A DNA stretch of 64,000 bases from Mesotaenium endlicherianum (taxonomy: Eukaryota). Positions 5,969-62,651 of this stretch are shown here, piece by piece. The notes beneath the pieces are model-generated. The model searched no databases. It saw nothing but the letters and a program-made list of their open reading frames with translations, and had not been told where the DNA came from. Position 1 is the stretch's first letter; every line of letters starts with the position of its first letter. The translations under genes and the position numbers were made by a program. Where the stretch lies: assembly GCA_009602735.1 (NCBI GenBank), contig WELA01003378.1, positions 189,712 to 253,711 on the forward strand, written 5' to 3'.

Positions 5969-7329
5969 AGTTATCACAGTAGTCGTGTATGGTAAGGACT
6001 AGGTCTCAAGCTAGCAACTCTCGGGAAATGGAGGGCGAGGACAATGATAACATTGTAGAAGGGCAAGACGAAAGTCGCGTCTTTGGACCCCGTACCTACT
6101 TGGAAACGCTGTACAATGCAGGAGCTAGAGAAGCTGCTGAGCAGGCAGCAGCTCTTGCTGCAGTAGCGGCCCTGCTGGCAGAGGATGAGCGTTTAGCCAA
6201 AGAGGTAGAGGAGGCAGTAAACAAGAGGGCTCCTGATGAAAGGACGGTGAAAGAGCAGATGGCAGAAAGGGCCAATCTCCGAAACCAATCTCCTGCTGTG
6301 CCCATTGTCATACCTCTCGCTCAAATTCGCAGACAGGTAAGCGCAACAAGCATAGCCGGGACAGTAGCAATCGGGAATGCTGAAGCTGCTACTAATCGAG
6401 CTAATGTTGCTGCTGCTGCGTTTGCTGGGCTACCACTTCAGAATGTAGATTTGGGAGCATTATTTGTGCAGATGCAATCACAATCGGCGAGCATGTATCA
6501 GTCCCAACAGGAGGACAAAAGGATCATGATGGCATTGCTGCGTGACAGAGACCAGCTCGATTGTCAAATAACTGGTGGTGGTGGCAGAGGGCCTAGTAAG
6601 CCTAAGCCAAACTTCCCCAGGACTATGATCCTGAGGGAAACAAAAAGTAATACGTGATGAAGTTTCTCGCCCTAGTTTAAAGGTTCGTATACGGCGTACA
6701 CGTGTGGGCGTACAGGTTATTCGTACAATACGTGATGACTGATTCAAACCGGCAATATTCGTCGAACTACGTTGGTGTCGGTCATTAAAATCGTTTTTCA
6801 TTTTTAAAACGTGTGTGGCCGACACCCTTGCGCGAGCCTTTTAAAAGTTTTTCAATTCGGTCCGTCAGAGTCCAGTCATCGCATCACACGTTTTGTGTTT
6901 CACGGAAGACCGTCGTGGCACTAGTTAAGCTAACGGCCGTGCTGATAACGTCGTGCCTTCGTAGCTTAGCAGCCGGCCATGTCTGGCTTCAACACTTCAA
7001 AAAGATGAACCTAGCGGGAAAAGGAACCAAAAGTTAGAACTCGTGTTTCCTTCCCGCTCCACCAAATGTGTGTTCTTCTAACTTTGTTACTCGCGTATCC
7101 AACAGGATACGTATTTTACCACACTTATCTGTCCCCTGTCCAATCACAGAGGGAAGGGAGTTGCTTACAGCAGCATTAGTGGTAGTATCCGCTTACTGAC
7201 AAGCCGCGTACGAATGCATCTGGTAAGGAGTCTCAGCCGAAACTCATACCTCACGTTGAACGCTGTATCTATTACTGCTTTATGGATTTGAGGATCCTCA
7301 CTCTTACTTAGCTCTTCTCATATCCTGCA

Positions 7330-10300
7330 ATGTCTGAACAGGACGTAGACGACATTTATTCAAGTCAATTCGACGACGAGGAGGAATGTGAGCTAGTTAC
7401 TCCCTGCATCACTTCTTGCTTGACATCGGCTGAGAAGGGCAAAACCAACGTCTACCCGATTCTACCCTCAGAGCATGACCACGTTCATAAGGTAGACAAG
7501 CGTGATTCCCCAGGTGCCTACCAAAATAATTGTACGTATTGTGGCCGTATCAACTTGGGAGGTGCATTTAGAATTAGGTACCATTTGGGGTGTGTTCAAG
7601 GGCAAGGAATCGCAGGCTGTCCTCAAGTTCCATCCAACGTTCAGGCTTTCTTTGCTGCCCAGTGCTATGAGAATGATAGGTCTAGATCTTACAAAGTTCC
7701 TCTTGCTCAAATGAAGCTTCTGCAAAAGCGTTCACGTCATGAGCGGACTATGGAGCAGCTGGCATTTGAGAAAGAAATGAAGAGGAGCGGCAATCTTTGC
7801 CCTTCCTTTTCCTCTGGAGGATCTGCTAAAGGTTTTGGTAGGCAAACTGACCTCCCTAAGGTATGGAAACCATGTTTCCGTGATCTAGCAGATCATGCAA
7901 TTGCCAAGTGGTTTTATGCCAATGGCATATCGTTTAATGCTGCCAATTGTGCGTCCTATGGACTCATGCTGGACTCCATATCCCGTGCTGGGCCTAACTA
8001 CTCTGGACCCCAAATGTGGCACCTAAGGACAAAGCTTCTGGATCGGGAAATGGTATGTTGTGACATCGAGCTTCGCCAATTCATGGAGAAGCTAAAAGTC
8101 ACAGCCTGTGTCATATGCTCCAATGGCTGGTAAGTCTTCTGCTACTGCTGCTGCATTGTAGCTTTGCTTTGCTGTTGCTGCTGCTGCTGGCCTGTTGCTT
8201 ACTTTGCTTGTGCTTGCGCTTGTGCTTCTGCTGGTTTTCTCTGCTGCTGTACTCATATATTATGTGCCCTAGGGTTGTGTGCTAGTAGATTGGTTTGCTA
8301 ATCTGCTGCTGCTGTTGTTGTGCTGCTGTGTTGCTGTTGTATTTACCTTATTCTTACCTCGCCTTCTTTTTTCGTGCCTAATAATTTGTTTTTTATTCAT
8401 GTACAGGACCGACATCACCAAAAGACCAATCATCAACTCCATTGTTGTGACTTCCATGGGTGAAAAAATGGTGAAGGCGGTCAACTGTGACGGCAAGTTC
8501 AAGAGTGGCAAGTTTATCGCCAAATGCTTTGAGGAGGTCATAGCAGAGATTGGTGCAGAGCATGTTCTCATGATATGCACAGATTCTGCTAGAGCATGCA
8601 AGAATGCAGGTATGTCCTTTTGTCTTTTTACTTTACTATATCGCGATGTTGTATTGCAAGTATGGAGGCCTGGTTTTGCGTAGTTGTGTTGCTTTGCTTG
8701 CTTTATTTCTATGCTGTGTTGGTGTGAGGCTAATTCTCTTGTGCTGCTGTCACAGAGCTGTGCAATCTAGTGTCAGCTGCTGTGATGCTACTCATTCTTC
8801 CGTGTGCTGTTGCTGTCATGCTGTGGAAGGTAGACTCATAGGAGCTAAGTACCCTGCCATTACGTGGAGTGCGTGTGCGGCACACGGCTTGGACCTCATG
8901 TTGGAAGCTATCGTGAAGATTGATTGGGTTCAACAAACTGTGGAGCGGGCGAGGAATCTTGTGAAATTCATCAGGAACCACCACAAGCCTCTATCTCTCT
9001 GTCGTGAAGAAGGCCAGTTGGAGCTCAAATTACCTAACGCGACGCGATTTCTTACCTCCTTCATCCTCTTGGAGCGGCTGAATAAAGTATGCATTCAACT
9101 TATGAAGCGATGCTTGTGCTGACCTCATGCATGCTACTCACACTACATTTAGCAAAGGGCCTCCACGTTGCTTTAATGTGCTTTTGCTTGTGTTGCTGCT
9201 GTAGTTCAGTAAGTGCTGCTTTGAGGTGCTAATGTTCTGCTGTTGGCTTGATATGGTGTGCTGCTGTGATGTGTCTGCTGGCTCTCTCTCTGTCGTGCTT
9301 GCTGTCTTGGGTGGTTAGCTGGTTTGTTGTGCTGCTGCTTTTCTCTCCTCTCCTTTGTCTCTCTTCTCACTCTCTCTCTCCCTCTCTCTCTTGCTTGCCT
9401 TCTTGGCTCGTTTCTGGTCTGTTGGTCTGCTGGTCTTCACTCTCCTCTCCTCTCCCTCCCCTCTCACTCTCTGGCTGGTTTTCTATTTTGCTCGTCTGCT
9501 GGTTCTCTCTCTCCTCTCTCCTCTCTCTCTGTCGCTTGCTTGTTGGCTGCTCTCTTGGTTCTCCTCTCCTTTCTCTCTCTCCTCTCTTTTGCTCGTATGC
9601 TCGGCTGGTTTGCAGGTCTGCAGGTTTGCTGGTTGTCACTCTCCTCTCCTTCCTCTCTCCTCTCCTCTCTCCCTTTCCCTCTCTCTCACTCCCTTGCTTG
9701 CTCGCTTGTCTAATCTGTTGGTTCTCCCTCCTATCTCTCCGCTCTTCTCTCTCTCCTCTCTCTCTTTCCCGCTTTCTTGGCTGGTCTGATGCTTTGCTGG
9801 TTGCTTCTCTCCTCTTCTTTCTCTCTCTCCTCTCCTCTCTCCTCTCTCCTCTTGCTCTTCTCTCCTCTCTCTCTGTCGCTTTTTTGCTTGGATGCTCTGT
9901 TTGTTCTCCTCTCTTCCCTCTCTCCCTCTTCTCTTCCTCGCTTGCTTGGCCGATCTGCAGGTCAGCTGGTTGTATCTCTCCTCTCATTCCTCTCTTTTCT
10001 TCTCTCTCTCTCTTTCTTCTATCTCTCTTTGGCAATCTCTCTCCCTCTTCCTGGCTTTGTTGGCTTGTTTTCAGGTTGGCAGTGTGATGGTTCTTACTTG
10101 GCTTGTTTTCTGTTCTGCTGGTTTGCTGGTCCTCTCTCTCCTCTCTCCCCTTCTCCTCTCTCCCCTCTCTTCTTGTCGCTTGCTTGCTTGGCCGCTCTGT
10201 TGGGTCTCTCCTTCCTCTCTTCTCGCTTGCTTGCTTGGCTGCTCTGTTGGTCCTGTCCTTTCTCTCTCCTCTCTCTTGCTCGCTTGCTTGGCTGGTCTGG

Positions 10301-12275
10301 AAGTATGCCGGACCTCTCTCCTCTCCCCTCGCTCTCTCTTTATCGCTTGCTTGCTTGGCTGCTGTGCTGGTTCTCCCCTCCTTTCTCTCTCCTCTCCCTT
10401 GCTCGCCTGCTTGGCTGCTCTATAGATCTGCTGGTTTTCTCTCTCCTCTCTTCTCTCTCCCCCTCCCTCTCACCCTCTTTTTTGCTTGCTTGCTTGTCTA
10501 GTCTGTTGGTTCTCCTCTCTCTCCTCTCTCCTCTCTCTCTCCTCTCTCCCTTGCTCGCTTTTTGGTCTGGTCTGCAGGTTTGCTCGTTGTCTATCTCCTC
10601 TCCTTTCCCTCTTTCGGAGTCTCTCCTCTCTGTTCTCTGGCTCTCTTTCGCCCTCTTGCTCAATTTCTTGGCTGATTTTGAAGTCTGGTGGTCTGCTGGT
10701 CCTCTCTCTCCCCTCTCTCCTCTTTCTCCTCTCTCTCTCTCTTGCTCGCGCTGTCGCCTGGTATTGACGCCTACTGGTGTGCTGGTCCTTTCTCTCCTCT
10801 CTCTCCTCTCTCCTCTCTCTCTCTCTCTTGCCCACGTTGTCGGCTGCTTCTGAAGTCTGGTGGTCTGCTGGTCCCGTCTCCTGTCACTCCTCTCTCCTCT
10901 CTCTCTCTCTTGCCCAAGTTGTCGGCTAGTTTTGAGGTCTGCTGGTATGCTGGTTCTTCTCTCTTGCTCGCTTGCTTGGCCGGTCTGCTGGTCTACTGGT
11001 TCTCTCTCCTCTCTCCTCTCTTTCTCTCCCCCTCTCTCTCCATTGCTTGCTTTCTTGGCTGGTTTGCAGGTCTGCTGGTCTGCTGCCTCTCTCTCCTCTC
11101 CTTTCTCTCTCTCTTCTCTGTCCCTCTCCCCCTCTCTCACTCTTGCTTGCTTTCTTCGTTGGTTTTCAGGTCTGCTGTTCTGCTGTTCTGCTGGTCTGCT
11201 GTTCTGCTGGCTCTCTCTCTCCTCTCTCTCCTCTCTTCCTCTCTCTCCTCACTCTCTCACTCTCTATTGCTATATTTTGTCCCGACTGTGTTGTTGTGCT
11301 TCTCCTTGTCGCCACTAATAGTGGGCTACATCTGTGTTCCTCGTGATACTGCAGGTGAAAGAGGGCTTGAAGTGCATGGTGGCCAGAGATGCTTGGACCC
11401 AGTGGAAGGACAAGCTCTCTCTTGATGAGTATGCGAAGTGCAACGAGCGTACTCAATGCATCAACGACCCCGTCGTTTGGAAGCAAGTGGAGAAGATCAT
11501 CAAGTTGGTGGAGCGGATCGTGCAGCTGCTTCGACTATGTGACGGGGTCCAGCTTGTCATTGGGCAGGTGTGGTGTAAGCTGTGTGACTACGTGAAGTTC
11601 ATCAAGAAGCTTCCTGGCTTTACCGCTGCGGAGAGGAACTTCTTTGTGGACCTTGTCCAAGATAGGTGGGACTTTTTTCACTCACCTATGCACGCAGCTG
11701 GCTATGTTTTGCACCCTCAATACCAGGACCATGCCCAGCATAGTGTGAAAGAGGTTAAGGCTGGGTGGAATTTGATTTTGGAGCGTTTGGTGCCTCACAA
11801 GGCTGACAGAAAGGTCATAAAGGAGCAGGTGAGGGTGTATCTGGCTAAGTAAGGAAGCTTTGCTGCTCCAGATGCTGATGATGATTGCACAGAACTTAGT
11901 GCTCCTGCATGGTGGCATGAGTATGGTTCTAGCACTCTTGAGCTGCAAGAGCTTGCCATTAAGGTCTTAGGCCTGTGTACGTCAGCGAGCTCTTGTGAGC
12001 GTAACTGGTCTGAGTATGACTTTGTGCATAACAAGAAGCGGAATCGTCAAACACAGGTTAGAGCTGTGAAGTTGGTTAACGTCCATTCCAACCTTCGCCT
12101 ATTGGAAGGCAAGAGGCGTGCGGGTAAAGAACCTGTGCCTGAGAGGTTCATTGAGGCTTACATTCAAGCAGAGGAGGGTGCTTTTGAGAATCCTGAAGAA
12201 GATGCACTAGATAGTGAGTCATGGCCCCTAGTAGAGGAGCCAGAATACTTCTCTAACGATGATCCATGTGAGTAG
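7330..12275 (+). pseudogene. hAT transposase (BED-like finger, DUF659-like core, C-terminal dimerisation domain); exons 7330-8129, 8407-8609, 8830-9086, 11355-12275
   Basis: CTYC...YHL...C; ICSNGW|TD; ICTDSA; CAAHGLDL; TRF; HAAGYVLHP; WWHEYG...ELQELAIKVL...SASSCERNWS. GT-AG introns keep phase. In-frame TAA at 11850-11852, and the usual DGW reads NGW. Confidence 0.92.
9250..11270 (+). repeat. Composite CT-rich microsatellite-like repeat in transposase intron 3
   Basis: (CT)n tracts alternating with TTGCTTGCTTGGCTGG and CTGCTGGT modules. Confidence 0.9.
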
Positions 12276-12459
12276 TAGCGTCGTACTTCACAGTTTAAAG
12301 TGCTCGCATATGTGAGGTCATTTAGGTTACTTTGCATTGACAGTGTAGGCTTTCATAGTCATTAGTTGAGTATTACTTTCATTACCATGTGGTGTAATAA
12401 TACCATTTTCCATAATTCTATGTACATAATTCCGACATTTTTTATAAATCCTCCATAAT

Positions 12460-12465
12460 TTGTCT

Positions 12466-12519
<54 letters not shown>

Positions 12520-13143
12520 TTGCTTGCTTGGCTAATATGCAAGTCTGCAGGTCTGTTGCCTCTCTTCTCTCTATCTCCCTCTTGCTTGCTTGCTTGGCTG
12601 ATCTGCTGGTTTTCTCTCCTCTCTCACACCTCCTCTCTATTTCTCTCTTTCCTCTGTCCCCTCTCTCCCTCTATGTCTCTCTGGCTTGCTTGCTTGGATG
12701 AGTTGCTGGTCTGCTGGTTTGCCGGTCCGCCGTCTCTCTCCTCTCTGTCTCTCACTCTCTCTTTCTATCTCCCTCTTGCTTTCTTGCTTGGCTGGTTTGC
12801 TGGTCTGCTCTCTCTCACTCTTTCTCTCTCTCTCTTGTCTCTCTCTCGCCCCCCCCTCCCTCTCTCTCCTCTCTCCCTCTATGTGTCTCTTGCTTGCTTG
12901 CTTGGCTAATCTGGTGGTCGGCTGGTATGCCGTCTCTCTCCCCTCTCTCTCTCTCCCTTGCTTGCTTGCCTGCCCAGCCTGCTGGTTCTCTCGCGTCTCT
13001 CCCTTCTCTCTCTTTCTCTCTCTCTCTCTCTTGCTTGCCTTGTCTGCTGATTTGGAGGTTTGCTCTCTCCTCTCTCGCTCAGCCTATATTATTGTTTGCT
13101 TGCTTGGGTGGTCCACTCGTTCTCTCTCCTCTCTCTCTCTTGC
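12460..13143 (+). repeat. Same composite CT-rich repeat downstream of the transposase stop
   Basis: Pure (CT)n at ~12473-12515 followed by the same modules. Confidence 0.9.
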
Positions 13144-14299
13144 TAGTGCATAGCATCTCTTAAATACCTAATCATCTTCATATTGTGCAGTCTAATGTTA
13201 TTGAGTATGAGATAATAGTTTTAATGCATACTCATTTAAGAGGCTAAGCTAAAGAGAATACAGCAAACACATATTAGTTTACTATAGGCTAAAAGCTAGT
13301 ATAGGATGAAGAGAAGCTGTGATTAATTGACAATTTCACTCGACGCGTGAAATTATGATACGACAAAGAAGTCTCAATAGTGCCAATAACAAACAATGAA
13401 CGACATGAGCGCTACATTGTAAATCAGTTAGACCTAAGGTCATATTTTCCTAATGGAACTTGCTTGCAGGCCTTACAGCTATCCTCCAGCTACAAGTGTG
13501 ACAACAAACTGGTACTTGGGCATAAGAGCATAGTGCGCGCACTCTCTCCAAGACTGCCCACATTATCCCCCCAAAGGACATAAACACATAAGACAAATAT
13601 TCATGCCATCGGAGGGCAAATATTACAGAATTGTGCAAAAGTCAAAAAGCCATATAGAGCCCAAAGTCCCGTACACTAAAGAGTACACCAAAGCAAAGCA
13701 AAGCAGAGTAGAGCACTGCAGATGCATGCTGATATTAGAACTATGAAACACATGCAAAAGAGAAAGTCTCAGAGTGTGTCGTGACGTACCTCGTCAAAAT
13801 GTTGTCAAATAAGACAGGCTGGTCTGGCAAGGAGTACACGACCACATGCGTCACACTTGGTGATGGGTCCGTTGCCAAGCACCCTCCGTACATAACCACC
13901 TCAAGTGACAATTGCCGCAGCGTCATTGCATCAACAGCTTGAAAGTGGGGGTTGCTGCATGTGAAGAGGTTGCACAGGTTCTGCATAATCAAGCATCAAA
14001 GCAAAAGAAGCAAGAGTAGCACAATACACAGCAGCACAACACAGCACAGCAAAGAAGAGCAAGACAGCAGCACAAACACAGCAGCAGCAGGTGCAAAGCA
14101 ACCTAGGCACACAGCAGAACACCAACATCCCCTAGCAGCAGCAGGTGCAAAGAAGCCTAGCAGCACGGCAGAACAGCAGCACCCCCTCGCAGCATAACAC
14201 CACAGCAGAAGGAAAATACCACAGCAATATTGCAGCAGCAAAGCAAGGTAGCAAGCAGAGAGCACGGCTCAACAGTACCATAGCAGCAGCGGCACAACG

Positions 14300-16866
14300 A
14301 ATGCGTAAGAGAGAGAGAGAGGAGAGAGAGAAAGGACAGAAGAGGACCAACAAGCAACTAAGCAAGCATGCAATAGAGAGAGAGAGGAGAGAAGGGAGAG
14401 AGAACCAGTAGCCAACAGGACCTGAAAACCAGCCAAGAAAGCGAGCAAACAAGAGAGGGCGAGAGGGGCAGAGAGGAGAGAGAGAGAGGAGAGAGAGGAG
14501 AGAGGAGAAGGAGGACCAACGAACCAGCAGAGTAGACAAGCAAGCAAGCAAGGGAGAGAGAGAAAGAGAAAGAGACCAGCGGGGGGGGGAGAGAGGGACA
14601 ACTAGCAGATCAGCCAAGCAGCGAAGCAAGAGAAACAGAACCACCAGACCAACAGACGTCAAAACCAGCCAACAAAGCGAGCAAGCATGAGGGAGAAAGG
14701 GCATACAAGCAAACCAACATCACAAAGAGAGAGAAGAGACGCAAGAGAGCACCACCAACCCACAATACCTAAAGAAAATTGCCAAGAGAGCAAGCAAGAC
14801 AGAGAGTGGGAGAGAGAGATAGGGGAGAGAGGAGAGAGAGGCCAGCAGACCAGCAGACCTAAAAACCAACCAAGAAAGCAAGCAAGAGAAAGAGGAAGGC
14901 AGAGAGAGGGAGAGAGAGGCGAGAGACAAAGGAGAGAAGAGAGAGAACCAGCAGACCAGCAAACTTGCAAAACCAGCCAAGAAAGCAAGCAAGAGAGAGG
15001 GGGGGGGAGAGAGAGAGGGAGAGGCGAGGAGAGAGAACCAGCACACCAGCAGACCAGAAGAGTAACGAAGCAAGCAAGCAAGGGAGAAAGAGAGAGATAG
15101 AGAGAAAGAGAAAGAGAGAGACTGAGGGGGAGGGGAGAGAGGAGGGAAGTGGGACAACCAGCAGAGGAGAGATCCGGCCAAGCAACAAGCAAGAGAGACA
15201 AAACTAGCAGCTGAGCAGACCTCAAAACCAGCCGAAAAAAGCGAGTACGAGTGATGGACAGAGAGCACCCAAGTAAGCAACATGAAAGAGAGAGACCGAA
15301 GAGAGGAGAGAGAGAACCACCAGCTCACCGGACCAAAAACCAGCCAAGAAAGCAACTAGGACAGAGAGGGGGAGAGAGAGAAGGGGAGAGAGAGAGGAGA
15401 GAGAGGACCAGCGGACCAGCAAACCAGAACACCAACCCAGAAAGAAAGCAAGAGAGAGAGGGGGGAGAGAGGGAGAGTGGAGAGAGAGAAAGGAGAGGAG
15501 GGAAAGAACAAGCACACCACCAAGCCTCCAACACCAGCGACGAAAGCCAGAAAGAGAGATAGGGGGGAAGAGAGAGAGGGGGGGGCGAGNNNNNNNNNNN
15601 NNNNNNNNNNNNNNNNNNNNNNNNNNNNNNNNNNNNNNNNNNNNNNNNNNNNNNNNNNNNNNNNNNNNNNNNNNNNNNNNNNNNNNNNNNNNNNNNNNNN
15701 NNNNNNNNNNNNNNNNNNNNNNNNNNNNNNNNNNNNNNNNNNNNNNNNNNNNNNNNNNNNNNNNNNNNNNNNNNNNNNNNNNNNNNNNNNNNNNNNNNNN
15801 NNNNNNNNNNNNNNNNNNNNNNNNNNNNNNNNNNNNNNNNNNNNNNNNNNNNNNNNNNNNNNNNNNNNNNNNNNNNNNNNNNNNNNNNNNNNNNNNNNNN
15901 NNNNNNNNNNNNNNNNNNNNNNNNNNNNNNNNNNNNNNNNNNNNNNNNNNNNNNNNNNNNNNNNNNNNNNNNNNNNNNNNNNNNNNNNNNNNNNNNNNNN
16001 NNNNNNNNNNNNNNNNNNNNNNNNNNNNNNNNNNNNNNNNNNNNNNNNNNNNNNNNNNNNNNNNNNNNNNNNNNNNNNNNNNNNNNNNNNNNNNNNNNNN
16101 NNNNNNNNNNNNNNNNNNNNNNNNNNNNNNNNNNNNNNNNNNNNNNNNNNNNNNNNNNNNNNNNNNNNNNNNNNNNNNNNNNNNNNNNNNNNNNNNNNNN
16201 NNNNNNNNNNNNNNNNNNNNNNNNNNNNNNNNNNNNNNNNNNNNNNNNNNNNNNNNNNNNNNNNNNNNNNNNNNNNNNNNNNNNNNNNNNNNNNNNNNNN
16301 NNNNNNNNGGGGGGGAGAGAGAGAGGAGAGAGAGGCAAGAAAGATGAGAGAAGACGAGCGGACCAGCGAACCAGCAGATCTGAAAACCAACCAAGAAAGC
16401 AAGCAAGAGAGAGGGGGAGAGAGGGAGAGAGGAGAGAGAAAAAGAACCAGCAGAACAGCAAACTTGCAAAATCAGCCAAGAAAGCAAGCAAGAAAGAGAG
16501 GGGGGGAGAGAGAGAGGAGAGAGAGGCAAGAAAGATGAGAGAAGACGAGCGGACCAGCGAACCAGCAGATCTGAAAACCAACCAAGAAAGCAAGCAAGAG
16601 AGAGGGGGAGAAAGGGAGAGAGAGGAGAGAGAGAAAAAGAACCAGCAGACCAGCAAACCTGCAAAATCAGCCAAGAAAGCAAGCAAGAGAGAGAGGGGGG
16701 GAGAGAGAGAGGAGAGAGAGGCAAGAGAGACGAGAGAGGACGAGCGGACCAGCGAACCAGCAGATCTGAAAACCAACCAAGAAAGCAAGCAAGAGAGAGG
16801 GGAAGANNNNNNNNNNNNNNNNNNNNNNNNNNNNNNNNNNNNNNNNNNNNNNNNNNNNNNNNNNNN

Positions 16867-16911
<45 letters not shown>

Positions 16912-17100
16912 AACAGACCAGCCAAGCAAGCAAGAAAGAGAGAAGAACCAGCATACGAGCAGACCTCAAAACCAGCCAACAACGTGAGCAACAAAGAGAG
17001 AGAGGAGAGAGAGGAGGAGACCACTAGACCAGCCAAGCAAGCGAGCAAGAGATAAAAAGACAACCAGCAGACCCAGGACCTGATAACCAGCCAAAAAAGC
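14300..17100 (-). repeat. Composite CT-rich repeat (GA-rich on +) in the LIG4-fragment intron; includes ~190-bp tandem units at 16309-16805
   Basis: Reverse complement of the modules seen at 9250-11270; the unit containing GACGAGCGGACCAGCGAACCAGCAGATCTGAAAACCAACC recurs three times. Confidence 0.9.
15590..16308. other. Assembly gap (N run); a second gap lies at 16807-16866
   Basis: N bases inside the GA-rich repeat. Confidence 1.
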
Positions 17101-18762
17101 CCTGAAAAACTAAAACCTGAACCCTACAGCACAAGAATGTACAACAGTCTGAATGTTGATTTTATCTTACACAGATTGAAGAGGACATGAAATGGAGATT
17201 TCACAGGAGTTGAACAGCCCTTGCAAGGCAGACGGCCACTCCTCTTGTTGACATTGAATAATTTGGGCTTGTGTGATAGGCAAATCAATCCCATCCATGC
17301 CTGCAAAAACCTGCAAGGCAGAGGCAGAGAATTAGTGATGGGGAGGAAGGACATTGCATATAAAATGCTGAGTAGTTCCGAAAAGGTATCTATTCGCCTG
17401 GATAGGTGTAATTTTCATGTGCACTGGCGTCAGTTACTTATAGAAAACCTTACCTGCCGTAAATCTGCAACACTGAGTGAATTGAAGAAGGCGTCCCCGA
17501 AGACGTCGTCCTCCCCCCTAACCTTCTCGCGACGTGACATTTTACTTTCTTGTTTTGCAGAGGTGCGCAGATGCTACGAACATGCACAGCAATGGAGTAG
17601 CTTAATGTGCATGACGAAGCATCGACCCGGCAGATAGAGTGTAGAGATAAAATTACTTCTCACGTAAAGTTAAAATGCTTAAGTTAAGCCGGCACCTATC
17701 GTGAGCACACTCCGTTTACACCAAACACGCGTGTACTCCCTCTACGTCATTCTGTATGACAGCGTGTTAGAATGGTACGTATTGGGATCCGAGCTGGTTC
17801 ATGTGAGCGAACAAAGAGTGCTGTGCTAAAGAAAACGACTGCGCTTAAAAAAAACTATCAAATCGACAACGACTTATACTTGAATTGTGCCGTACGAGAA
17901 TATGGCGTACAAAATTCGTACAATACGTCACATGCAGCCTGTACGGCCGAATTTTTAAACTAGGTTTCTCGCTGATGTTGAGTAGTGGCTATAAAACTAC
18001 AGGATTACGAGAAGGTCAAGCACACTGGTGCTTTACTGAAAGGCAGTGCAGCAGACTGGTGGCCGTATTGGAAAGGAGAGTGTAATGCTCAGCAGCTCGG
18101 TGACCCTACTTGAGTAGAGTTTGTCGAGAAACTGCATGAGAAGTTTGATGTCATCAATTAGCAGGAGAAAGCTATCTATGCAATGACCTTGACACTGAAG
18201 CAGACCACTTCAATTGCCGAGTTTGCTCAAAAGTTCCAGGAGAACATGATGAGCAGCCAGACTTGCCAGAACAGTGTAGGATAGCATACTTCAGGTATGG
18301 CTTGAAATTTGAAGGCTCAGGTCGTTTTGCTAAAAAGAAGTACGAGAAACTGGCCAACTTGATCCAGGACGTTGATGCCTGGGATCAGCAACAGTTCAGT
18401 CACAAGCGCCAGAGTAATGCTTTGGTGTCTACGATTGTCAGAAAGCCACACGGTTCCTACAATGCAATTGAAGGAGACCAGGCTCAGGACCATCAGGGTG
18501 ATGAGTATGAGTAAAATGCTATGCAGTCTAGAGGGAGAGGTGGTTACTCTTGAGGTGGCTATAGAAGAGGTGGTGGTAGGATTAAGCCGAGACCAGTCTC
18601 AGCAAAATCTAAGCTGGGTCACTCCAAAGAGCAGTGTCCAGTGAAGCACCTGTCAAAGGTTGAGAGAAAGGACCAGCCTTTAAAAGACAGCAACAGTCAG
18701 TAATCCTGTCTACTGACTGTGAGGATGCTAGAGATAGTAAGTCATCACTAGCTGCCCTCTGG

Positions 18763-21938: not shown

Positions 21939-24900
21939 CTATGACCTTACATCATCCCCTTCCTCAAGATGCGACGTCCTCGACGCATACTGCAGATAAC
22001 GTCTCAACTTACTCCTACAATGAGTCAAGTTGGCCTCTGGCTCCCAAGTGTTGTCGTTCGCATGGTAGCCTTTCCACTTGACCAGATACTCTTGGACAAA
22101 TCGTTGACCTCGTTTCACTCGTGGATCGCCGAGAATCGCCTCCACTTCATACTCCAACACATCATCGATCTCGACCGGTGGTGGCGGTGTAGGTAGTCGT
22201 CCTGGATGTCCTTCATTCGGGTCAACGTATGGCCGCAGACAACTGACATGGAACACAGCATGGATACGCCTGCCTGAAAGAAGGTCCAACTTGTAGGCCA
22301 CTGGATCCACCTGCTTGAGCAGTACAAAGGGACCTGTAAACCGTGCCCGCAATTTCCTCTTGCCTGTGAAAGGTAGGTTCTCTGTGGACAAGAGTGCTTT
22401 GTCGCCCACATGGACTGTCACTTCCCTCCTGTGCTTGTGAGCATGCTTGACCTGCTCTTCGTGTTCCTTCCGAATACACGTCTTCGCCATATGCCAAGTG
22501 TTGGCCACCTGCTCCATAAAAGCTTGTGTAGTAGGAACCTGAGTCTCCTTGGCCTTCTCCAACAAGATGTTCCCTGGATGATATACTTCTCGCCCATAAA
22601 CCATAGCGTATGGTGACTGCTTGGTCAATCCCTGCATACTGTTGTTGTAGGCAAACTCCAATCCTGGCAGCTTCCTGTCCCACTCTGAAGGGTCTTCCAT
22701 AGTGAAACTCCTGAGCACCTCTTGCAAAGTTCTGTTGAGCCTCTCACTCTGCCCGTCTGTTTGAAGATTATAGGAAGTGCTCATACTCAGCTTGTTCCTC
22801 ATCAAAGTAAACAATGACCGCCAAAAGTTGCCAGTAAACCTTGGATCTCGATCTGAAACAATCTCCTTCGGCAACCCATGTAGCCTGAAAATATGATCAA
22901 AGAATAGCCGTGCCACATCCGCTGCCGTAGAAGTTTCCTTTATGGGAATGAAGTAAGCCATCTTGCTGAGTCGATCAGACACAACCCATACTGCATCATG
23001 CCCTTGATCACTCATTGGTAAAGATGTGATGAAGTCCATACCAATTTGCTCCCAAGGATACTCTGGAAAAGGCAGGGGTTGCAATGTACCTCCCTTCTTT
23101 TGATTTGGTGTCTTGTTTCTCTGGCACGCATCGCAACTCTTGATCCACTCCTCGATGTTCTTGTCCATAGTTCTCCAGTAGTATTCCCGTTTCAGCACGC
23201 TTGCCGTCTTCTCGCTTCCAAAGTGTCCAGCATATAAGCAGTCATGATGCTCCGCAAGTAGTGAGTCACGTAGCTCCTTGCTGTCAGGTACCACAACTCT
23301 GTTCAAATCACCATAATACCATATGCCATCCTTCTTCTGCATACTCGAGTTGGACTCAGCTGCTCCACCATCAGCAAACTCTGGGTCCTCCTCATAACCT
23401 GTTTGAAGCTTCTCCTTGAAGTCCATATTCTCCTTGATGACTAAGACAGCTGTAAGGTCACACCTCCTGGATAAAGCGTCTGCAGGGTTGATCTTCTCAG
23501 GTAAGTACTCAATCTTGTGGTGAAAATGTTGCAGAAACTCCATCCACCTTGCCTGTCTTGGTGTCAACGTTGGCTGCGTCATTAACTTCTCCAAGCTCTT
23601 GTGGTCGGTCTTGATGAACACCCTCCGTCCGTCCACATAACATCGCCAATTCCTCAAAGCCTGAATAATAGCCAACATCTCCCGCTTGTGTGCTGCATAA
23701 TTCTGCTCAGCAAGACTCAACTTCCTGCTCTCGTATGCCACAGGCTGCAATCCCTTGCCCTGGTCCTGGAGAAGAATGGCCCCCACTGCAAAGTTTGATG
23801 CGTCTGTGATGATGGTAAAAGGAAGTTCTGGACTGGCGATTGCCAACAAAGGTGCTTGTGTCAATAACTCCTTAATCCTCTCAAATGCTTGCGGCTCCTT
23901 GTCACCCCATAGCCACTTCTCCTGCTTCTTCAACATGTCCGTGAGCGGTGCACACACCTTGGCAAATCCTTCAATGAAACGTCGATAATAATTCACCATG
24001 CCGAGGAAACTTCTGAGTTGATGAATATCAGCAGGTACCGGCCAATCTCTGACTGCTTGCACCTTCTTCTGCTCCACCTTGACTCCTTCAGCCCCCACTA
24101 TGTGCCCAAGAAACTCGACCTCCTTGAGACAGAAGTCGCACTTGCTCATCTTCCCATATAAATTTTGATCTCTCAAGACCTCCAACACCTTCTTCAAATG
24201 CTCCACATGCTCTTCCAAGGTCTTGGAATAGATTAAGATGTCGTCCAAAAATACCACCACAAACTGGTCCAAGTAGGGCCTGAAGATACTATTCATGAGT
24301 CCCATGAATGTAGCAGGTGCATTAGTCGATCCAGAAGGCATGAATGTGAACTCGAACAAACCATAGCGAGTGCTGAAAGCAATCTTCTGAACGTCTCCTT
24401 CCGCAATCCGTACCTGGTGATAGCCACTCCTCAAATCGATCTTCGAGAAATACTTCGCCCCGACAAGCCTGTCAATCAACTCGTCCACTCGTGAAAGTGG
24501 GTACCTGTTCTTGATGGTGACCTTGTTCAGTGCCCGGTAGTCGACGCACATCCTCATAGTCCCATCCTTCTTCACAAATAAGACTGGCGCTGCAAATGGA
24601 GACTCGCTGGGTCGGATGAATCCCTTCTCCAACAACTCTGTCAGCTGCTTCTTCAACTCATCCAACTTCGCAAACAATTGTCGATAGGCGGGTCTCACTG
24701 GTGGCTTGCTCCCTGGTTCCAACTCAATCTTGTGCCCCATAGCTCTCTGTGGAGGTAATCCTGCAGGTAGCTCCTCAGGAAACACGCACTTGAACTCCTC
24801 CAACAGCGCCTTAATTTGGGCAGGCATCTCAGCAGGCTTCTTCTCTTGAGCAGTTGGGCTCTGCTCCTTCTGAGCAAGGGGATCAGACACCACTACTTGC

Positions 24901-25619
24901 TCCTCCGGCGATGTACATTCGCCCAACCTGTTAGGATTCACGCTTGCTCCATCTGATGACCTGGCCAGGGCCACCGAAACAAGGTACATCTCCTTCACCT
25001 GATTCGCCCTGCATAGCTTCTTAACTTGCAGGCTCGACAGAAGACGATTACTTGTGGTCGTATCTACCTCCACCTGTTTTGCTGTCTCCATTCGACCATC
25101 ATGTCGTTGGACTTTCACTTGTCCTGTGCTCTAGTGCACTTGAGGGTTGGCTTTTCTCAGCCATGGTCGGCCCAATATCACCTCGTGGTGACCTAACTTC
25201 GCCTGCTCCATAACTTCAGTACTCTGGTGCCCCGCTACTTCCACGTGAATAGCTTCCGTAGATGCACCATACTTGAGTCTCTGCCCATTTGCCAAAATTG
25301 CCTCCTTAGGCTCATAATGCTTTTGCACAAAGATTCGCCACTCTTTCACCAGCTTCTTGTGCACAAAGTTTGCACTTGCGCCACTGTCGACCATACACTT
25401 CGCCTTGTTGCCGTCGACCACTCCTTCCACGATGATAGGATTGTCAACATCTCGTCTTTCGCTTCTCGGCAGGCTCCTGGAGATAACCTCCTTGTGAGTT
25501 CTCGTCTTCACGCCAGTAGACACCCCAGAACGTCTTACTGGCGTCCTCCTTTTTCTTGCTGTTGATGTTGCTTCGACTTCAAATGAAAGTCTCGAGCCAG
25601 ATGTCCAAGCTTGCCGCAA
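21939..25619 (-). CDS. pol: Family D pol (protease, RT, RNase H, integrase, chromodomain); one in-frame TAG at 25131-25133
   Basis: [32 protein letters not shown]...CDAC; SDRDPRF; YEVEAIL...YLVKWKGY...TWEPE. Confidence 0.93.
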
Positions 25620-39748: not shown

Positions 39749-41029
39749 ATGGCCGATCCTCAAGACCAACAGCAAGCTTTCGAAGGAAGCCCTTCCTCTC
39801 CAAGACACCCTCCTCCAGCGCCGATGGGAGAGCCCACTCAAGAAAATCTGCAACAACAAGAAGCACCACAAGGAGGAGCACACCCTCCTCCAGCGTCGAT
39901 GGGAGAGCCTACTCAAGGAAATCTGCAACAACAAGAAGCACCACAAGGAGGAGCACCGTCAAATCCCGTGGCAGCCGCTATAGCAAAGTTGACCCCACCA
40001 CAAGGAGTTCCCGCAAATGAGTGGGCAGCCTTCCTAATGACCGTCCACAACCAAGTGGGCTTGGCCACCTATGAAGCAACCGTGCAAGCGTCAAGAGAAG
40101 CTATGGCTGCCATGGTTGCCCCTATTGCGAGCAATGCTCAAAATCCAGCCCCGGCTCAAGCGCCTCCACAAGAGCCAACGAGAGCAAGGAAACTCATCAA
40201 GCCCGGCAAACCCGACACTTTCAACCCCGGGAAAGGTGCCAACCTGAATTTATGGCTCTACCAAGTGGAGACGTACCTCGCGTTCCTTGAAGTACCCGAG
40301 GAGGACTACGTTCCCTTTGCCGTTACCTTACTTAGAGGAGCAGCAACATCATGGTGGCGTAACTATCAAGCGGCTATATATCAAGCTATGGCGCACCCCA
40401 TGCTCGGCCAAGAGCCCCCACCATCATATGCAAGATGGGCAGATTTTCGTGAGGCCCTCAAGAAGCAATTCATGCCCATCAATGCGGAGAAGATTGCCCG
40501 AGGAAAGCTCCACCATCTCAAGCAAACGACGTCCGTTCAAGAGTATACATCCAGATTTCACGCCCTCACTCTTGAGATCCCCAACATGTCTCTCGAGGAG
40601 AAGATTGACCGTTACATCTTTGGCCTCAAACCCAAGGTGGCAAAGGAAGTGGAGTTACGCGACTTGACGGACTTCTCAAAGATCATTGAAGTGGCCCAAA
40701 AGGTGGATACCTTGGATTTCAAGCACTCCGTGCCTTCATCTTCACGGGTACCGACGACGCGGGTGTACGCAGCCCCTTCCACATCCGAATCTGGACCCAC
40801 ACCCATGGAAATCGGAGTTATTAAAAGGGACCCCGCGGCTGCCCGGAAGAGTGGAAGACCCTCCAATGACACTTATGATGCAAGAAACCAGCAAGGAGTG
40901 AAAGCAAGACTCTCCCCGGCTGAAAAAGAAGCTCTCATGACGGCTGGACTATGCTTCTATTGCAAGGAAAAGGGCCATCGTGCACTTTCATGCCCCAAAA
41001 AGTTGTCAAAAAACGGACAGCGCCGGTAG
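39749..41029 (+). CDS. gag: Family B gag (intact, 426 aa)
   Basis: [18 protein letters not shown], zinc knuckle [14 protein letters not shown]. Confidence 0.95.
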
Positions 41030-44000
41030 GCCAGGAGCCTACCACCCCAAGACCCACTTCACGAGAAGGCAACACGCCAAGTGAGGTGGAGACCCCCGTT
41101 GAAGACGACGTTCCAGCCCCAATGAGTTTGAGAGGTTACCTTGGAGGAGAGAAGGTCCACATCTTGGTGGATAGCGGAGCTCAAGGCAACTTCATTGCTG
41201 CAGATTTTGCCACCAAGCACGGTATTACTATGCGAACTCTTGACCACGACGAGGAGATTATGATGCCCGATGGATTCTCCTATACTACCCCTTCCAAGAA
41301 GACGTACCCCTTGGCACTCTCTATCAAGTCCTTCAAGGATAGAGTAGTGTTCTCCCCCATGCAATTGGGCAAGTACGACGTCATCCTAGGGACGCCTTGG
41401 TTGACCAAGCACAACCCCCAAGTTGATTGGAGGACCGGTACTATCAAGATCAAGAATGACATCACTTCAAGAATCTGTATTTTGCGCGCAATCCAGAATA
41501 TCCAGACCCAAGACATCCAGAAGCCGGCACACGAGATACTATTGTCCGCCCTCCAACTCAAGAGACTTGTGAGGAAGGGACACGAGCTTCTTTTGGCCTT
41601 GATCACGCCAAAAGACATCAAGAAAGACATCGAGAGTCAAGAAGGCAGCCCCGTTCCCAAGGAGATACAAGAAGTCTTTGAGGACTACAAAGAAGTGTTC
41701 TCCCCGGAATTGCCCAAGGGCCTACCCCCCAAAAGATTCGTAGACCACAAGATAGAGTTGGAGCCCGGAAGCAAGCCCATCTCTCGGCCTACGTTCAAAA
41801 TGTCATACACGGAGCTAGACGAAGTCAAGAAGCAAATCAAGGAGCTACTGGAGCATGGCTTCATTCGACCTAGCAAGTCGCCATTTGGAGCCCCGGTGCT
41901 ATTTGTCAAGAAGAAAGATGGTACCTTGAGGATGTGTGTGGACTATCGCGCCCTCAACAAGATCACCATCAAGAATCGATACCCGCTGCCGCGCATGGAT
42001 GAGCTCATGGACCGGCTGGTTGGAGCCAAGTACTTCACGAAGATTGACTTACGGAGCGGCTACCACCAGATTCGCATCGCAGAACCGGACATAGAGAAGA
42101 CGGCATTCAGGACAAGATATGGACATTTTGAGTTCATGGTCCTGCCATTTGGACTCACCAACGCGCCAGCAACTTTCATGACTATGATGAACACCATATT
42201 TCAGCCCATGTTGGACAGATTTGTGGTGGTATTCATCGATGACATCCTTATCTACAGCAAGACCCTTGAAGAGCATGCGAGACACTTGAAAGAAGTCCTT
42301 GAAGTATTGAAGCAAAACAAGCTGTTTGCGAAGGAGTCAAAATGCGAGTTTGCCAAACAAGAAGTGGAGTTCCTAGGTCTCCACGTGACTGCTGATGGCA
42401 TCAAGATAGACCCCAAGAAGACCACGGTGGTGGAGGAATGGCCAACCCCCACGACCAAGAAAGAACTCCAGTCATTCTTGGGATTTGCCAATTGGTACAG
42501 AAAATTCATCCAAGGCTTCTCGCACATAGCAGCCCCCCTGACAGATCTACTCAAGAAGGACAGGCTATATACATGGACCGAGAAAGAGGAAGAGGCATTT
42601 CAAGAGTTAAAGCGAAGATTGACCACATCCCCGGTGCTCACACTCCCAAGTCCAAACCCAGATTGGCCCTTCCACGTCATCACCGATGCATCTTCCTATG
42701 CAATAGGAGCAATCCTGCTTCAAGACCAAGGCAAGGGACTGCAGCCCATCGCCTACGAGTCAAGGAAGCTAAATCCAGCCGAGCAAAATTATACAACCAC
42801 GGAGCGAGAGGCATTGGCGATTGTACATGCCTTGAAGGTTTGGCGCTGCTACGTTGAAGGACGCAAAGTACTGGTCACCACGGACCACGAGGCGTTAAAG
42901 CACCTCCAGACGCAGCCGTATCTCTCAAGGAGACAAGCAAGATGGAGCGGATACTTGCAACAATACAACATCACGATTCAGTACCAGCCCGGCAAGACAA
43001 ACCCGGCTGACCCCCTCTCAAGACTGCAATTAAATGCAGTGATGGTATCCCTAAAGACAGATCTGGAAGCTCGATTTTCAGCCGCCTATGAAAGAGACCC
43101 TTACTACAAGAACGAAGAAGCTGCCTTGGACCCACGTAAGAAGCAAGAAGGCAATTATTGGGTGAGGCAAGATACGGGCCAGAGATGTGTTCCTAATGAC
43201 ATCAACCTCCGGCTCTTGCTTCTACGAGAAGCACACGACAACCCTCTTGGAGGACACTTGGGAATCCTAAGGACCACGGGCGTTCTAGCTAGGACTTATT
43301 GTTGGCCAGGCATGTCTAAGCAAGTCAAGGAGTACTGCAGGAGCTGTGACACATGCCAAAGAATCAAGCCATCATCGCAAAAGGCGGGAGGACTCCTCCA
43401 ACCACTACCAATCCCCGAAAGACAATGGACGGACATCTCAATGGACCTTATCGTGGACTTGCCCGTGACACCTCGAGGCCATAATGCAATACTCACGGTG
43501 GTGGACAGACTTACCAAGATGGCTCATTTTATTCCCACGACGACTAAGGCTACAGCACCACAACTTGCAAGACTCATCTTTGACAACATCTTCCGACTCC
43601 ATGGACTACCATCAAGAATTGTGTCAGGTAGAGATCCAAGATTCACAAGCCATTTCTGGAAAAATCTCTTCAAGAACTTGGGTACATCGCTGGATATGTC
43701 TACTGCCTACCACCCACAATCAGATGGGCAAACCGAGCGTATGAATCGTACCCTAAAGACCTCTCTAAAGGCCTACGTGTCTACCCTCGAGCAAGACTGG
43801 GACATGTACTTGACCCCCCTCGAGTTTGCCTACAACAACACTACGCAGGCCTCTACCCAAGAGTCCCCATTCTTCCTCAACTATGGCTTCCATCCGACCA
43901 CGCCACTGAGCTTCACGGCTGGCCATGATGAAGTACCTGCAGCCACAGATTTTATGGAGACATTAGAAGCAGCCCTTACAGCAGCGAAGAAAGCTCTACA

Positions 44001-44616
44001 ACACGCGCAAGATGCTCAAGCAAGAGTGGCGAACAGATCCAGAAGAGAAATTACGTACAGAGTGGGTGACAACGTGTTACTATCATCCAAGAACATTTCC
44101 CTGAACAACAGGCCTGCCGGCAGCAAGTTCTCTCCCAAGTATTTGGGACCCTTCAAGATTATCCAGCAAGTCAACCCCGTTGCTTTCAAGCTAGAACTTC
44201 CCCAGACTATGCACATCGACCCCGTATTCCACGCTTCCCTCTTCAAGCCATATGTGCAACCCGACAACAAGTTCCCAGGACGTGTGACAACCCCACCAGC
44301 CCCAACAATAGTGGATGATCATTTGGAGTACGAAGTGGAAGACATAGTGGCTATGAGAAATTTCAGGAGACAGCAGCAATACTTGATCAAGTGGAAAGGA
44401 TATCCAGATTCGGAGAATAGTTGGGTGGCGGCGCACTACCTTGACAAAGTTCAACGAAAGTTGAAGCGCTTCCATACCGCCAACCCCCATCTTGGACCAG
44501 CCCCAAGTCTCTCTACTAGAAGCCCGAAGACTTCAGGGAGGCAGCCTGCCACCATCAAGAAGCAGCAGAAGACCCCTTGGAGGCAGCCTGCAAGAACAAG
44601 AAAGAGGAAAAATTGA
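41008..44616 (+). CDS. pol: Family B pol (PR-RT-RH-INT-chromodomain), uninterrupted, in the -1 frame relative to gag
   Basis: [46 protein letters not shown]. The usual integrase SDRD reads SGRD. Confidence 0.95.
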
Positions 44617-61169: not shown

Positions 61170-62651
61170 TTACTGACTGTTGCTGTCTTTTAAAGGCTGG
61201 TCTTTTCTCTCGACCTTGGGCAGGTGCTTGACTGGACACTGTTCTCTGTAGTGGCCTTTCTGCTGACAATGGTAGCAAGTGGATTTTGCTGAGGCTGGTC
61301 TCGGCTTAGTCCTACCACCACCCCTTCCATAGCCACCTCGAGAGGAATCACCTCTACCTCTAGACTGAATAGCATTGTACTCATACTCATATTCATCATA
61401 TCCCTGATGATCCTCAGCCTGGTCTCCTTCAATTGCATTGTAGGAACCGTGGGGCTTTTGGACAATCTTAGACACCAAAGCGTTGCTCTGGCGCTTGTGA
61501 TTGAACTACTGCTGATCCCAGGCGTCAGCATCGTGGATCAAGTTAGCCAGTTTCTCATACTTTTTCTCAGCAAAATGACCAGAGACCTCGGATTTCAAGC
61601 CATACCTGAAGTATGCTATCCTATACCGTTCTGGCAAATCTGGCTGCTTCATCATGTTCTCTTGGAACTTTTGAGCAAACTCAGCAACTGAAGTGGTCTG
61701 CTTCAGTGTCGGGGAGATCATCGCATAGATAGCTTTCTTCTGCTGGTTGATGACATCAAACTTCTCATGCAACTTCTTGACAAACTCTACCTACGTAGGG
61801 TCACCGAGTTGCCGAGCCTTACGCTCTCCCTTCCAGTAAAGCCACCAGTCTGCGGCACTGCCTTTCAGTAGCGCACCGGTGTGCCTGACCTTCTTGTAAT
61901 CTTGGAGTTCTGGGTAATTCTCCAGCCACTGCTCAACATCCGCGAGAAACTTGATCAAGTAATATTTTCTGTTCCCCTCAGGATCATATTGCTGGGGGGG
62001 TTTTGGCTTGGGCTTACTTGGCCCTCGACCACCACCACTAGTGGTGTGAGACCCCAGTTGGTCTCTGTCCCGGAGTAGGGACATTATGATTCTTTTGTCC
62101 TCCTGCTGGGACTGATACATGGTCGCCATTTGCGACTACATTTGAACGAACAATGCTCCCAAGTCTACACTCTGGGGTGGTAGTCTAGCAAATGCAGCAG
62201 CAGCATTGGCATCTACTCGCTGAGTAGTGTCCTCAACAGTCCCTCTCGCTCCTGCAGCAGCAATTCCTGCCGCATTCAGCCGGTCACGTATTTGACCTAG
62301 GGGTACGTTGAGTTGTACAGCGAGGGGTGGGTTCAGAACATTGGCCCTTGATGCCATGAGTTCCTCGACAATGCGCTGGTCAGCTGGCTGTCTTTCCCTC
62401 ATTTCTGTATCTTTCGCGGCCTTTGCTACTTGTTCAGCTTCTAGCCTGGCTCTCTCCTCCTCAGCTTGCTGAGCTGCGACTGAGGCAATAGCAGCTGCCT
62501 CCTCTGCAGCCTCCCTAGCTGCATAATCTGCTACTGCTTCCGAGTAGGTACGGTTTCCCGCTACATGGCTTTCCGCCTGGTTTTCGACATTCTCGTTATC
62601 CTGGTTCTCCATGTCTCGGGAGTTGCTAGTTTGAGACCTTGTCCTTACCAT
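61170..62651 (-). pseudogene. gag: A3 gag
   Basis: MVRTRSQ...; LKQTTSVAEF; zinc knuckle CYHCQQKGHYREQC; in-frame TAG stops at 62136, 61791 and 61506. Confidence 0.9.

Follow-up and report, generated by a model that had tools for sequence, protein, structure and literature searches.

A hAT transposon of Mesotaenium endlicherianum with a four-exon mini-gene captured from the C-terminal region of plant DNA ligase IV

The analyzed stretch, hereafter the window, is the whole 64,000 nt of contig WELA01003378.1 (positions 189,712–253,711) of Mesotaenium endlicherianum, and all positions are counted along it. The window contains a transposon of the hAT superfamily at 6671–17964, which carries a second gene, here termed the cargo, on the strand opposite to its transposase gene. 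The cargo comprises four minus-strand exons with GT-AG borders, which encode 173 codons followed by TGA with one internal TAG, and it converges on the transposase gene. It represents four consecutive exons of a plant DNA ligase IV gene, covering the XRCC4-interacting region and the second BRCT domain (BRCT2) and no catalytic core. The initial annotation had proposed four minus-strand exons splicing in phase to 173 codons from an ATG approximately 420 bp inside the terminal inverted repeat (TIR). This gene structure is confirmed, with the ATG located 424 nt inside the right element end (17964). The element comprises the following features.

6663–6670, no strand: left target site duplication, 8 bp, identical to the 8-mer at 17965–17972
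6671–6687, plus strand: left TIR, 11 bp perfect and 15/17 overall, with CGTAC-type subterminal repeats next to it
7330–12275, plus strand: hAT transposase gene, four predicted exons (7330–8129, 8407–8609, ~8830–9086 and 11355–12275), ~725 codons
11850–11852, plus strand: internal TAA stop in the transposase gene at codon 586, the sole stop in frame
13553–13424, minus strand: cargo exon 4, 130 nt with the stop; end of BRCT2 and read-through of the ligase IV splice-donor site to TGA
13492–13490, minus strand: TAG at the BRCT Trp, codon 152, private to the window copy among the sequences compared
13954–13790, minus strand: cargo exon 3, 165 nt; BRCT2 helix 1 to helix 2
13955–17170, minus strand: cargo intron 2, 3216 nt including 779 N, with CT-rich repeats on the sense strand
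17310–17171, minus strand: cargo exon 2, 140 nt; end of clamp helix 1, loop, helix 2 and first BRCT2 strand, with residues 36–60 strongly diverged
17540–17454, minus strand: cargo exon 1, 87 nt; ATG, XRCC4-interacting hairpin and helix 1
17541–17964, minus strand: leader and right subterminal region, transcribed, with six upstream ATGs and an alternative donor near 17664 that bypasses exon 1
17948–17964, minus strand: right TIR, an inverted match to the left end, with CGTAC-type subterminal repeats
17965–17972, no strand: right target site duplication, 8 bp, inside a Gypsy gag region

The TIRs, the 8-bp duplication and an empty site define the element as a single insertion. A paralogous Gypsy copy in the window contains the 8-mer once, at approximately 61942–61949, and aligns to both flanks of the element. 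Since the same duplication occurs on both sides and the empty site exists, both ends belong to one insertion, and the earlier placement of the convergent cargo within one hAT element holds. The right end is further supported by three DNA contigs that diverge from the window sequence exactly past 17964. All four tested features of the hAT superfamily are present: the 8-bp duplication, short TIRs with subterminal repeats, transposase domains, and past movement, the last seen in the insertion into the Gypsy element and in the other flanks that the three contigs carry past 17964. The terminal repeat begins with CCTAG at 6671–6675, a parse fixed by the empty site; most hAT ends begin with C/TAG, from which this sequence differs by one base. 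Two N gaps (15590–16308 and 16807–16866) both lie within cargo intron 2. A mis-join across these gaps, which the initial annotation had considered capable of separating the exons, is ruled out because RNA links exons 2 and 3 across both gaps (17 reads with a loose end at 13954 and 37 at 17171).

The exon model of the transposase was obtained by enumeration of GT-AG borders, and the start of its exon 3 is ambiguous. DUF659 was detected on two exons (E 3e-12 and 2e-10, above the cutoff) and Dimer_Tnp_hAT at E 3e-8, while a word-index search with a transposase exon gave no match, a blank that is weak in this type of search. Residue 264 lies in the motif SNGW, with Asn in place of the expected first catalytic Asp. 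With the TAA at codon 586 and this Asn, the window copy of the element is no longer active.

The ligase IV origin of the cargo was assessed at the protein and gene levels. The joined cargo aligns without gaps to P0002 (74/160 identical, E 9e-50), a 211-residue gene model named jgi/Mesen1 ME000070S09131 (Mesotaenium) by its source. P0002 was found by a full HMMER search using the frame that holds exon 3, which gave seven matches, three of them real; P0001, P0004, P0005 and P0006 were discarded as noise from repeat proteins. By itself, P0002 weakly matches PF11411 (E 0.01) and human ligase IV (E 0.047). It begins at the XRCC4-interacting motif, without the rest of ligase IV, and could represent either one part of a gene that was split in annotation or a further fragment that stands alone. 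The BRCT matches are weak but consistent. Word-index searches, whose blanks are again weak, returned nothing for P0002 among longer proteins or for exon 3; exon 1 alone had no Pfam match, exon 3 alone had no PDB match, and viral contigs contained no relative of the cargo. The predicted structure of P0002 is poor (mean pLDDT 50.8), and Foldseek gave no match at E <= 0.001. Ligase IV chains occupied five of its ten top ranks with the longest alignments, and VIA Z did not exceed 3.4; these results were not used as support.

Nine metagenome loci (L001–L009) served for comparison with ligase IV genes. L001 contains, in order, PF01068, PF04679, BRCT and PF11411 (22.8 bits against a cutoff of 22.1; 31 frames scanned), followed by four exons that match the cargo; the exon homologous to cargo exon 1 matches human ligase IV at E 5.5e-4. 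All four cargo exons match in order and on one strand in plant ligase IV loci, and the window cargo is 37–47% identical to the plant ligase IV sequences compared, P0002 among them. The intron phases (0, 2, 2) and the lengths of exons 2 and 3 (140 and 165 nt) are the same in the cargo, L001 and L004 (2/4 loci parsed). The initial assignment of the cargo to the XRCC4-interacting region and BRCT2 of LIG4 is thus corroborated by P0002, by the four-exon match and by PF11411. Because the exon order, intron phases and inner exon lengths equal those of ligase IV loci, the capture occurred at the DNA level, with introns included. A donor-like GT follows the last matching exon in L001 and L004, and it is there that the cargo continues for three codons to its TGA. 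The intron equivalent to cargo intron 3 has a GC donor in L001 (6435–6634) and in L004 (2700–2891), and a GT donor in the cargo.

At the N-terminal side, alignments via P0002 and L001 place cargo D12 opposite human D759, where the XRCC4-interacting region (residues 759–803; PMC4786802) begins. The cargo hence begins 11 residues ahead of this region, and its F19 and F31 align with the human XRCC4-binding hot spots F766 and F778. The bases upstream of the cargo ATG bear no resemblance to a ligase IV exon; the ATG corresponds either to the Met conserved inside the host exon, with two codons deleted, or to one newly arisen where L001 and L003 have Lys. Two alternative parses were rejected: a start of exon 3 at acceptor 13980 is out of frame, and compensating frameshifts in exon 4 or in residues 36–60 are inconsistent with the gap-free match to P0002 and with inspection of the other frames. 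The 42 nt at 13523–13564, which belong to exon 4 and intron 3, are matched by an unrelated contig of 3 kb in runs X1 and X5; this was taken as chance.

Sibling copies were sought in the DNA run X1, which possibly derives from the window's own sample and is consequently not independent. X1 holds 0.72 of the words and is without the window's own allele at several sites (e.g., 17176 and 17195). Several allele contigs cover the same cargo positions, up to eight at one leader site, and the three contigs with different flanks beyond 17964 come from this run. The cargo is multi-copy. Contigs at approximately 50–65 depth look single-copy, which would correspond to roughly five or six other copies, bearing in mind that depth is not a copy number and that the alleles are unphased. 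The ATG site is uniform in DNA (0/327 depth units deviate). The initial annotation had noted a TAG at the BRCT Trp and a single stop in the transposase; both are present, and codon 152 in siblings reads TGG in 334/398 units of DNA contig depth and in 39/39 RNA reads.

In one sibling, a long terminal repeat (LTR) retrotransposon is inserted at 17557, 17 nt upstream of the cargo ATG; LTR ends of the same family occur in the window at ~1879, 47199 and 51182. The DNA loose end at 17557 was considered as a capture junction and rejected, being the LTR end. At 17828–17835, 17769, 17870 and 17909, the right end is common to RNA reads (9 and 7) and DNA contigs, which then pass into other sequence. They probably stem from related elements or from short derivatives in which this interior is missing, some of which are transcribed.

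Transcription was examined in the RNA run X24, 13% of which was read (143 reads on 13150–14030 and 175 on 17060–17995). All three cargo junctions, whose detection in RNA had been proposed as a check of the initial gene model, are present: 38 reads join exon 3 to exon 4, 17 join exon 2 to exon 3 in frame, and five reads and one contig join exon 1 to exon 2. The contig, 680 nt long, comes from X5, which carries the same alleles as X24, and spans exon 2, exon 1 and the leader to 17965. In X21, the first mate lies on the plus strand in all six reads, which fits a minus-strand RNA, and X20 (organism B) yielded no contigs on 17060–17995. The transcribed copy is approximately 94% identical to the window copy. 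The transcript comes from a sibling element and not from host ligase IV, because it continues through the leader into the terminal repeat; a host ligase IV transcript was rejected on this ground. RNA depth on the cargo falls to zero below ~13330, approximately 1 kb short of the transposase stop. In the transcribed copy an in-frame stop lies upstream, and the first in-frame ATG is codon 34, past the hairpin and helix 1. The private alleles of this copy are absent from X1, which a different strain or the contig filter may explain.

As the explanation of these structures we tentatively prefer, at somewhat less than an even chance, a mini-gene that was selected in an active ancestor of the element, likely as an XRCC4 decoy, and is now decaying in both copies seen. 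From its right end, an intact copy would express a protein of 173 residues, in competition with full-length ligase IV for binding to XRCC4. Less end joining would take place at the excision break, and homology-directed repair would then copy the element back into the donor site. Precedents for these steps exist: in human cells, XRCC4 assembly is disturbed by ligase IV fragments (PMC4786802); end joining serves to repair donor sites (10.1101/015289; 10.1101/2022.08.01.502254); and homology-dependent repair permits replicative transposition (PMC10288884). The span of the cargo, which matches the human minimal unit and ends three codons past the BRCT2 exon, is consistent with such a role. In its fullest form, the proposal would make the cargo a transposon-evolved non-homologous end joining (NHEJ) inhibitor, derived from host ligase IV, binding XRCC4, expressed from the right end and turning cut-and-paste movement into net replication; this we consider possible and rather short of probable.

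The pattern of conservation provides the main argument for past selection. A shared-allele version of the cargo, carrying the 13 alleles common to RNA and DNA siblings against the window, has an open frame, the ATG, the Trp, intact splice sites, and exons 2 and 3 of the same lengths as in L001 and L004. Conservation was scored over 69 columns invariant in P0002, L001 and L004, which represent two independent ortholog lineages only. The shared-allele version keeps 48/59 invariant positions outside residues 36–60 and 0/10 inside (Fisher p 1e-6), and in a sliding scan 0/300 permutations reached the observed loss block. The retained positions amount to 10/14 in the hairpin and helix 1 and 38/45 in BRCT2; for the hairpin and helix 1, the window copy also keeps 10/14 and the transcribed copy 9/14. 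In the reciprocal count P0002 keeps 48/63, so that the cargo outside residues 36–60 is as conserved as a true ortholog. In flowering plants, ligase IV conserves the block at residues 36–60. Such unevenness would not result from uniform neutral decay. Furthermore, no host-type haplotype at least 85% identical was seen in 143 RNA reads, six RNA contigs, or the DNA loose ends at exons 3–4; RNA alleles were supported by 52/53 to 71/71 reads, 2/143 reads were below 90% alike, and the DNA loose ends lay off the exon borders. Since no second, host-type haplotype was seen in these data, the donor was probably not a close host gene. Together, these two observations fit, without proving, an old capture in which most of the protein was constrained and helix 2 and the linker were released.

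Several findings weigh against the decoy. The first is structural: the block without retained positions comprises clamp helix 2 and the linker, and helix 2 is required to displace ligase IV from XRCC4, as stated in PMC4786802. The XRCC4-interacting region named in the initial annotation is thus retained in part, with the hairpin and helix 1 preserved and the helix 2 portion not. The lost helix-2 residues constitute the main structural doubt about tight XRCC4 binding. The same uneven pattern would suit a selected accessory gene that changed its job, with helix 2 released, weak or no XRCC4 binding, and BRCT2 as its acting part, such as in an adaptor that recruits repair factors to the transposition complex. 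Such a shift would agree with the need for helix 2 in competitive displacement and with the finding that BRCT2 alone gives no block (PMC4786802). We regard this alternative as unlikely, as 10/14 invariant positions are kept in the hairpin and helix 1, the parts known to contact XRCC4, and no targeting or transposase-binding part is visible in the 173 residues. A host lineage with an odd block, an element from another species, weak ligase IV expression or the contig filters may each account for the observations from which an old capture was deduced.

The remaining adverse findings concern the transcripts. The exon 2–exon 3 junction uses the out-of-frame acceptor 13980 in 15 reads, close to the number in frame, and exon 1 is skipped in ten reads, in which the leader donor near 17664 is joined to exon 2, and included in five. 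Reads at least 99% like the window copy were absent (0/143, 0/175 and 0/6). The transcribed copy has AAG at the ATG site in 14/14 reads, G where the FGD motif has its Asp and H in place of an invariant BRCT Leu, and no ATG-bearing copy was seen in RNA in three runs, where RNA and DNA may differ in strain. Both readable copies are broken, the window copy by the stop and the transcribed copy by the missing ATG. Because the XRCC4–ligase IV complex is not blocked by BRCT2 alone (PMC4786802), and the first ATG of the transcribed copy lies past the hairpin and helix 1, this copy probably does not function as a decoy. Its transcript extends to the outermost end of the element, and the promoter may consequently be flanking DNA.

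Between the window and transcribed copies, codon differences are synonymous in seven cases (115 sites) and non-synonymous in 22 (404 sites), a list that is complete or short by about one according to the contig totals. The resulting dN/dS is approximately 0.85 (interval 0.34–2.0), and the density of differences is similar in coding (30/519 nt) and non-coding sequence (37/661; p 0.90). The change between these copies is neutral drift, which is expected whether or not the gene served an active element. The initial annotation had associated passive capture with a cargo that is single-copy, unexpressed and decaying neutrally; of these properties, only the near-neutral dN/dS was found, between two copies, whereas the cargo is multi-copy and a sibling is transcribed. 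This near-neutral value weighs less because dead transposon copies drift neutrally even when they carry useful genes.

These observations bring a passive origin close to the decoy as a rival. In such a scenario, a genomic ligase IV fragment, from this host or from another species before horizontal transfer, would have been captured by chance and hitchhiked through a transposition burst, with one copy transcribed from a flanking promoter. We consider this a real possibility that stops short of being probable. It would explain the neutral change between both measurable copies, the restriction of transcription to an ATG-less copy, which is spliced imprecisely and has six ATGs upstream, and the position of the cargo 3' end in an intron, which follows the exon structure and not necessarily function. 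Moreover, PMC8903248 describes gene-fragment capture as common in plant TIR elements, including hAT. It does not readily explain why conservation was lost block-wise (0/10 against 48/59), why no close host match is found in RNA or DNA, why the shared-allele version has an open frame and intact splice sites, or why the 5' junction lies within a few bases of an in-frame ATG, just ahead of the binding motif.

A further alternative is that the cargo acts as an RNA, whether to silence host ligase IV, to protect the element against silencing or as antisense to the transposase gene, with an incidental reading frame. Transcription of an ATG-less copy and the convergent gene layout would be compatible with this, and camouflage by captured sequence has been proposed (PMC13317346). 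However, no host sequence at least 85% identical was seen, which leaves little small-RNA match, the RNA ends well before the transposase stop, and the conservation pattern is at the protein level. An RNA role is therefore very improbable.

Most known accessory genes in plant and fungal transposons act against silencing. Accessory genes include mudrB of MuDR, which is likewise convergent from the opposite end, and the VANC anti-silencing genes. Like the cargo, transposon accessory genes are thought to counter a host process. The known ones differ in that they counter silencing or aid insertion, and none found in the literature searched derives from the end-joining machinery; the cargo, in turn, is known from one family in one organism, with a predicted function. 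The TET/JBP dioxygenases of fungal DNA transposons, including hAT7, likewise represent a second, host-captured gene in a transposase-bearing element (PMC12730594). Pack-TYPE elements, including Pack-hAT, are described in PMC8903248 as carrying host coding exons between hAT TIRs with an 8-bp duplication, as multi-copy and as capable of being transcribed. Pack-TYPE elements are non-autonomous by definition (PMC8903248), and the present element is not one of them because it retains a full-length transposase gene; its cargo, furthermore, forms a single coherent unit of four exons that has a start and a stop of its own.

Engineered human ligase IV C-terminal fragments (PDB 3II6) share with the cargo the span and order of parts, the F766/F778 equivalents and the lack of a catalytic core; their binding has been demonstrated, as reported in PMC4786802, whereas the cargo is natural, plant-type and devoid of the conserved helix 2 and linker residues. 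Plant ligase IV genes contain the same four consecutive exons, with phases 0, 2, 2 and exons of 140 and 165 nt. In contrast to the cargo, they have ligase domains, BRCT1 and downstream exons, and their intron 2 measures approximately 126 nt as compared with 3.2 kb.

A transposon carrying a ligase IV fragment was not found in the titles and abstract openings searched, a scope outside which subscription papers, Repbase and supplements fell. Likewise, the main text of a 2026 review of gene capture does not contain 'DNA repair', and that of an Arabidopsis atlas of transposon products does not contain 'NHEJ', 'BRCT' or 'ligase'. As far as searched, a ligase IV cargo in a transposon is new, its structure being well supported and its proposed function plausible. 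The copy gain of cut-and-paste elements depends on the pathway that repairs the donor break, as set out in 10.1101/015289, 10.1101/2022.08.01.502254 and PMC10288884. If the decoy is correct, the element would steer the repair choice of its host using a stolen part of the repair machine, and the cargo might offer a compact, plant-type means to raise gene-targeting rates. If the capture was passive, the locus would still provide a clear example of a hAT family that bears a transposase and carries a gene fragment of several exons.

Additional observations concern the non-coding parts of the element and its surroundings. The long introns of the transposase and cargo genes (9087–11354 and 13955–17170) and the segment 12450–13189 contain similar CT-rich repeat units, which are 64–69% alike over 600–1300 nt and 77–79% pyrimidine. 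The units always lie on the sense strand of their own gene and hence in opposite orientations inside the element. The CT-rich block at 12450–13190 ends in a plus-strand acceptor-like sequence at 13190 and may be an intron in the 3' untranslated region of the transposase gene. RNA depth is zero on 13150–13329, and the DNA siblings carry an insertion at 13190. Outside the element, long open frames of 1063 and 1230 codons lie at 21939–25130 (minus strand) and 40924–44616 (plus strand), respectively, among nested LTR pieces, and the former reads by eye as Gypsy pol.

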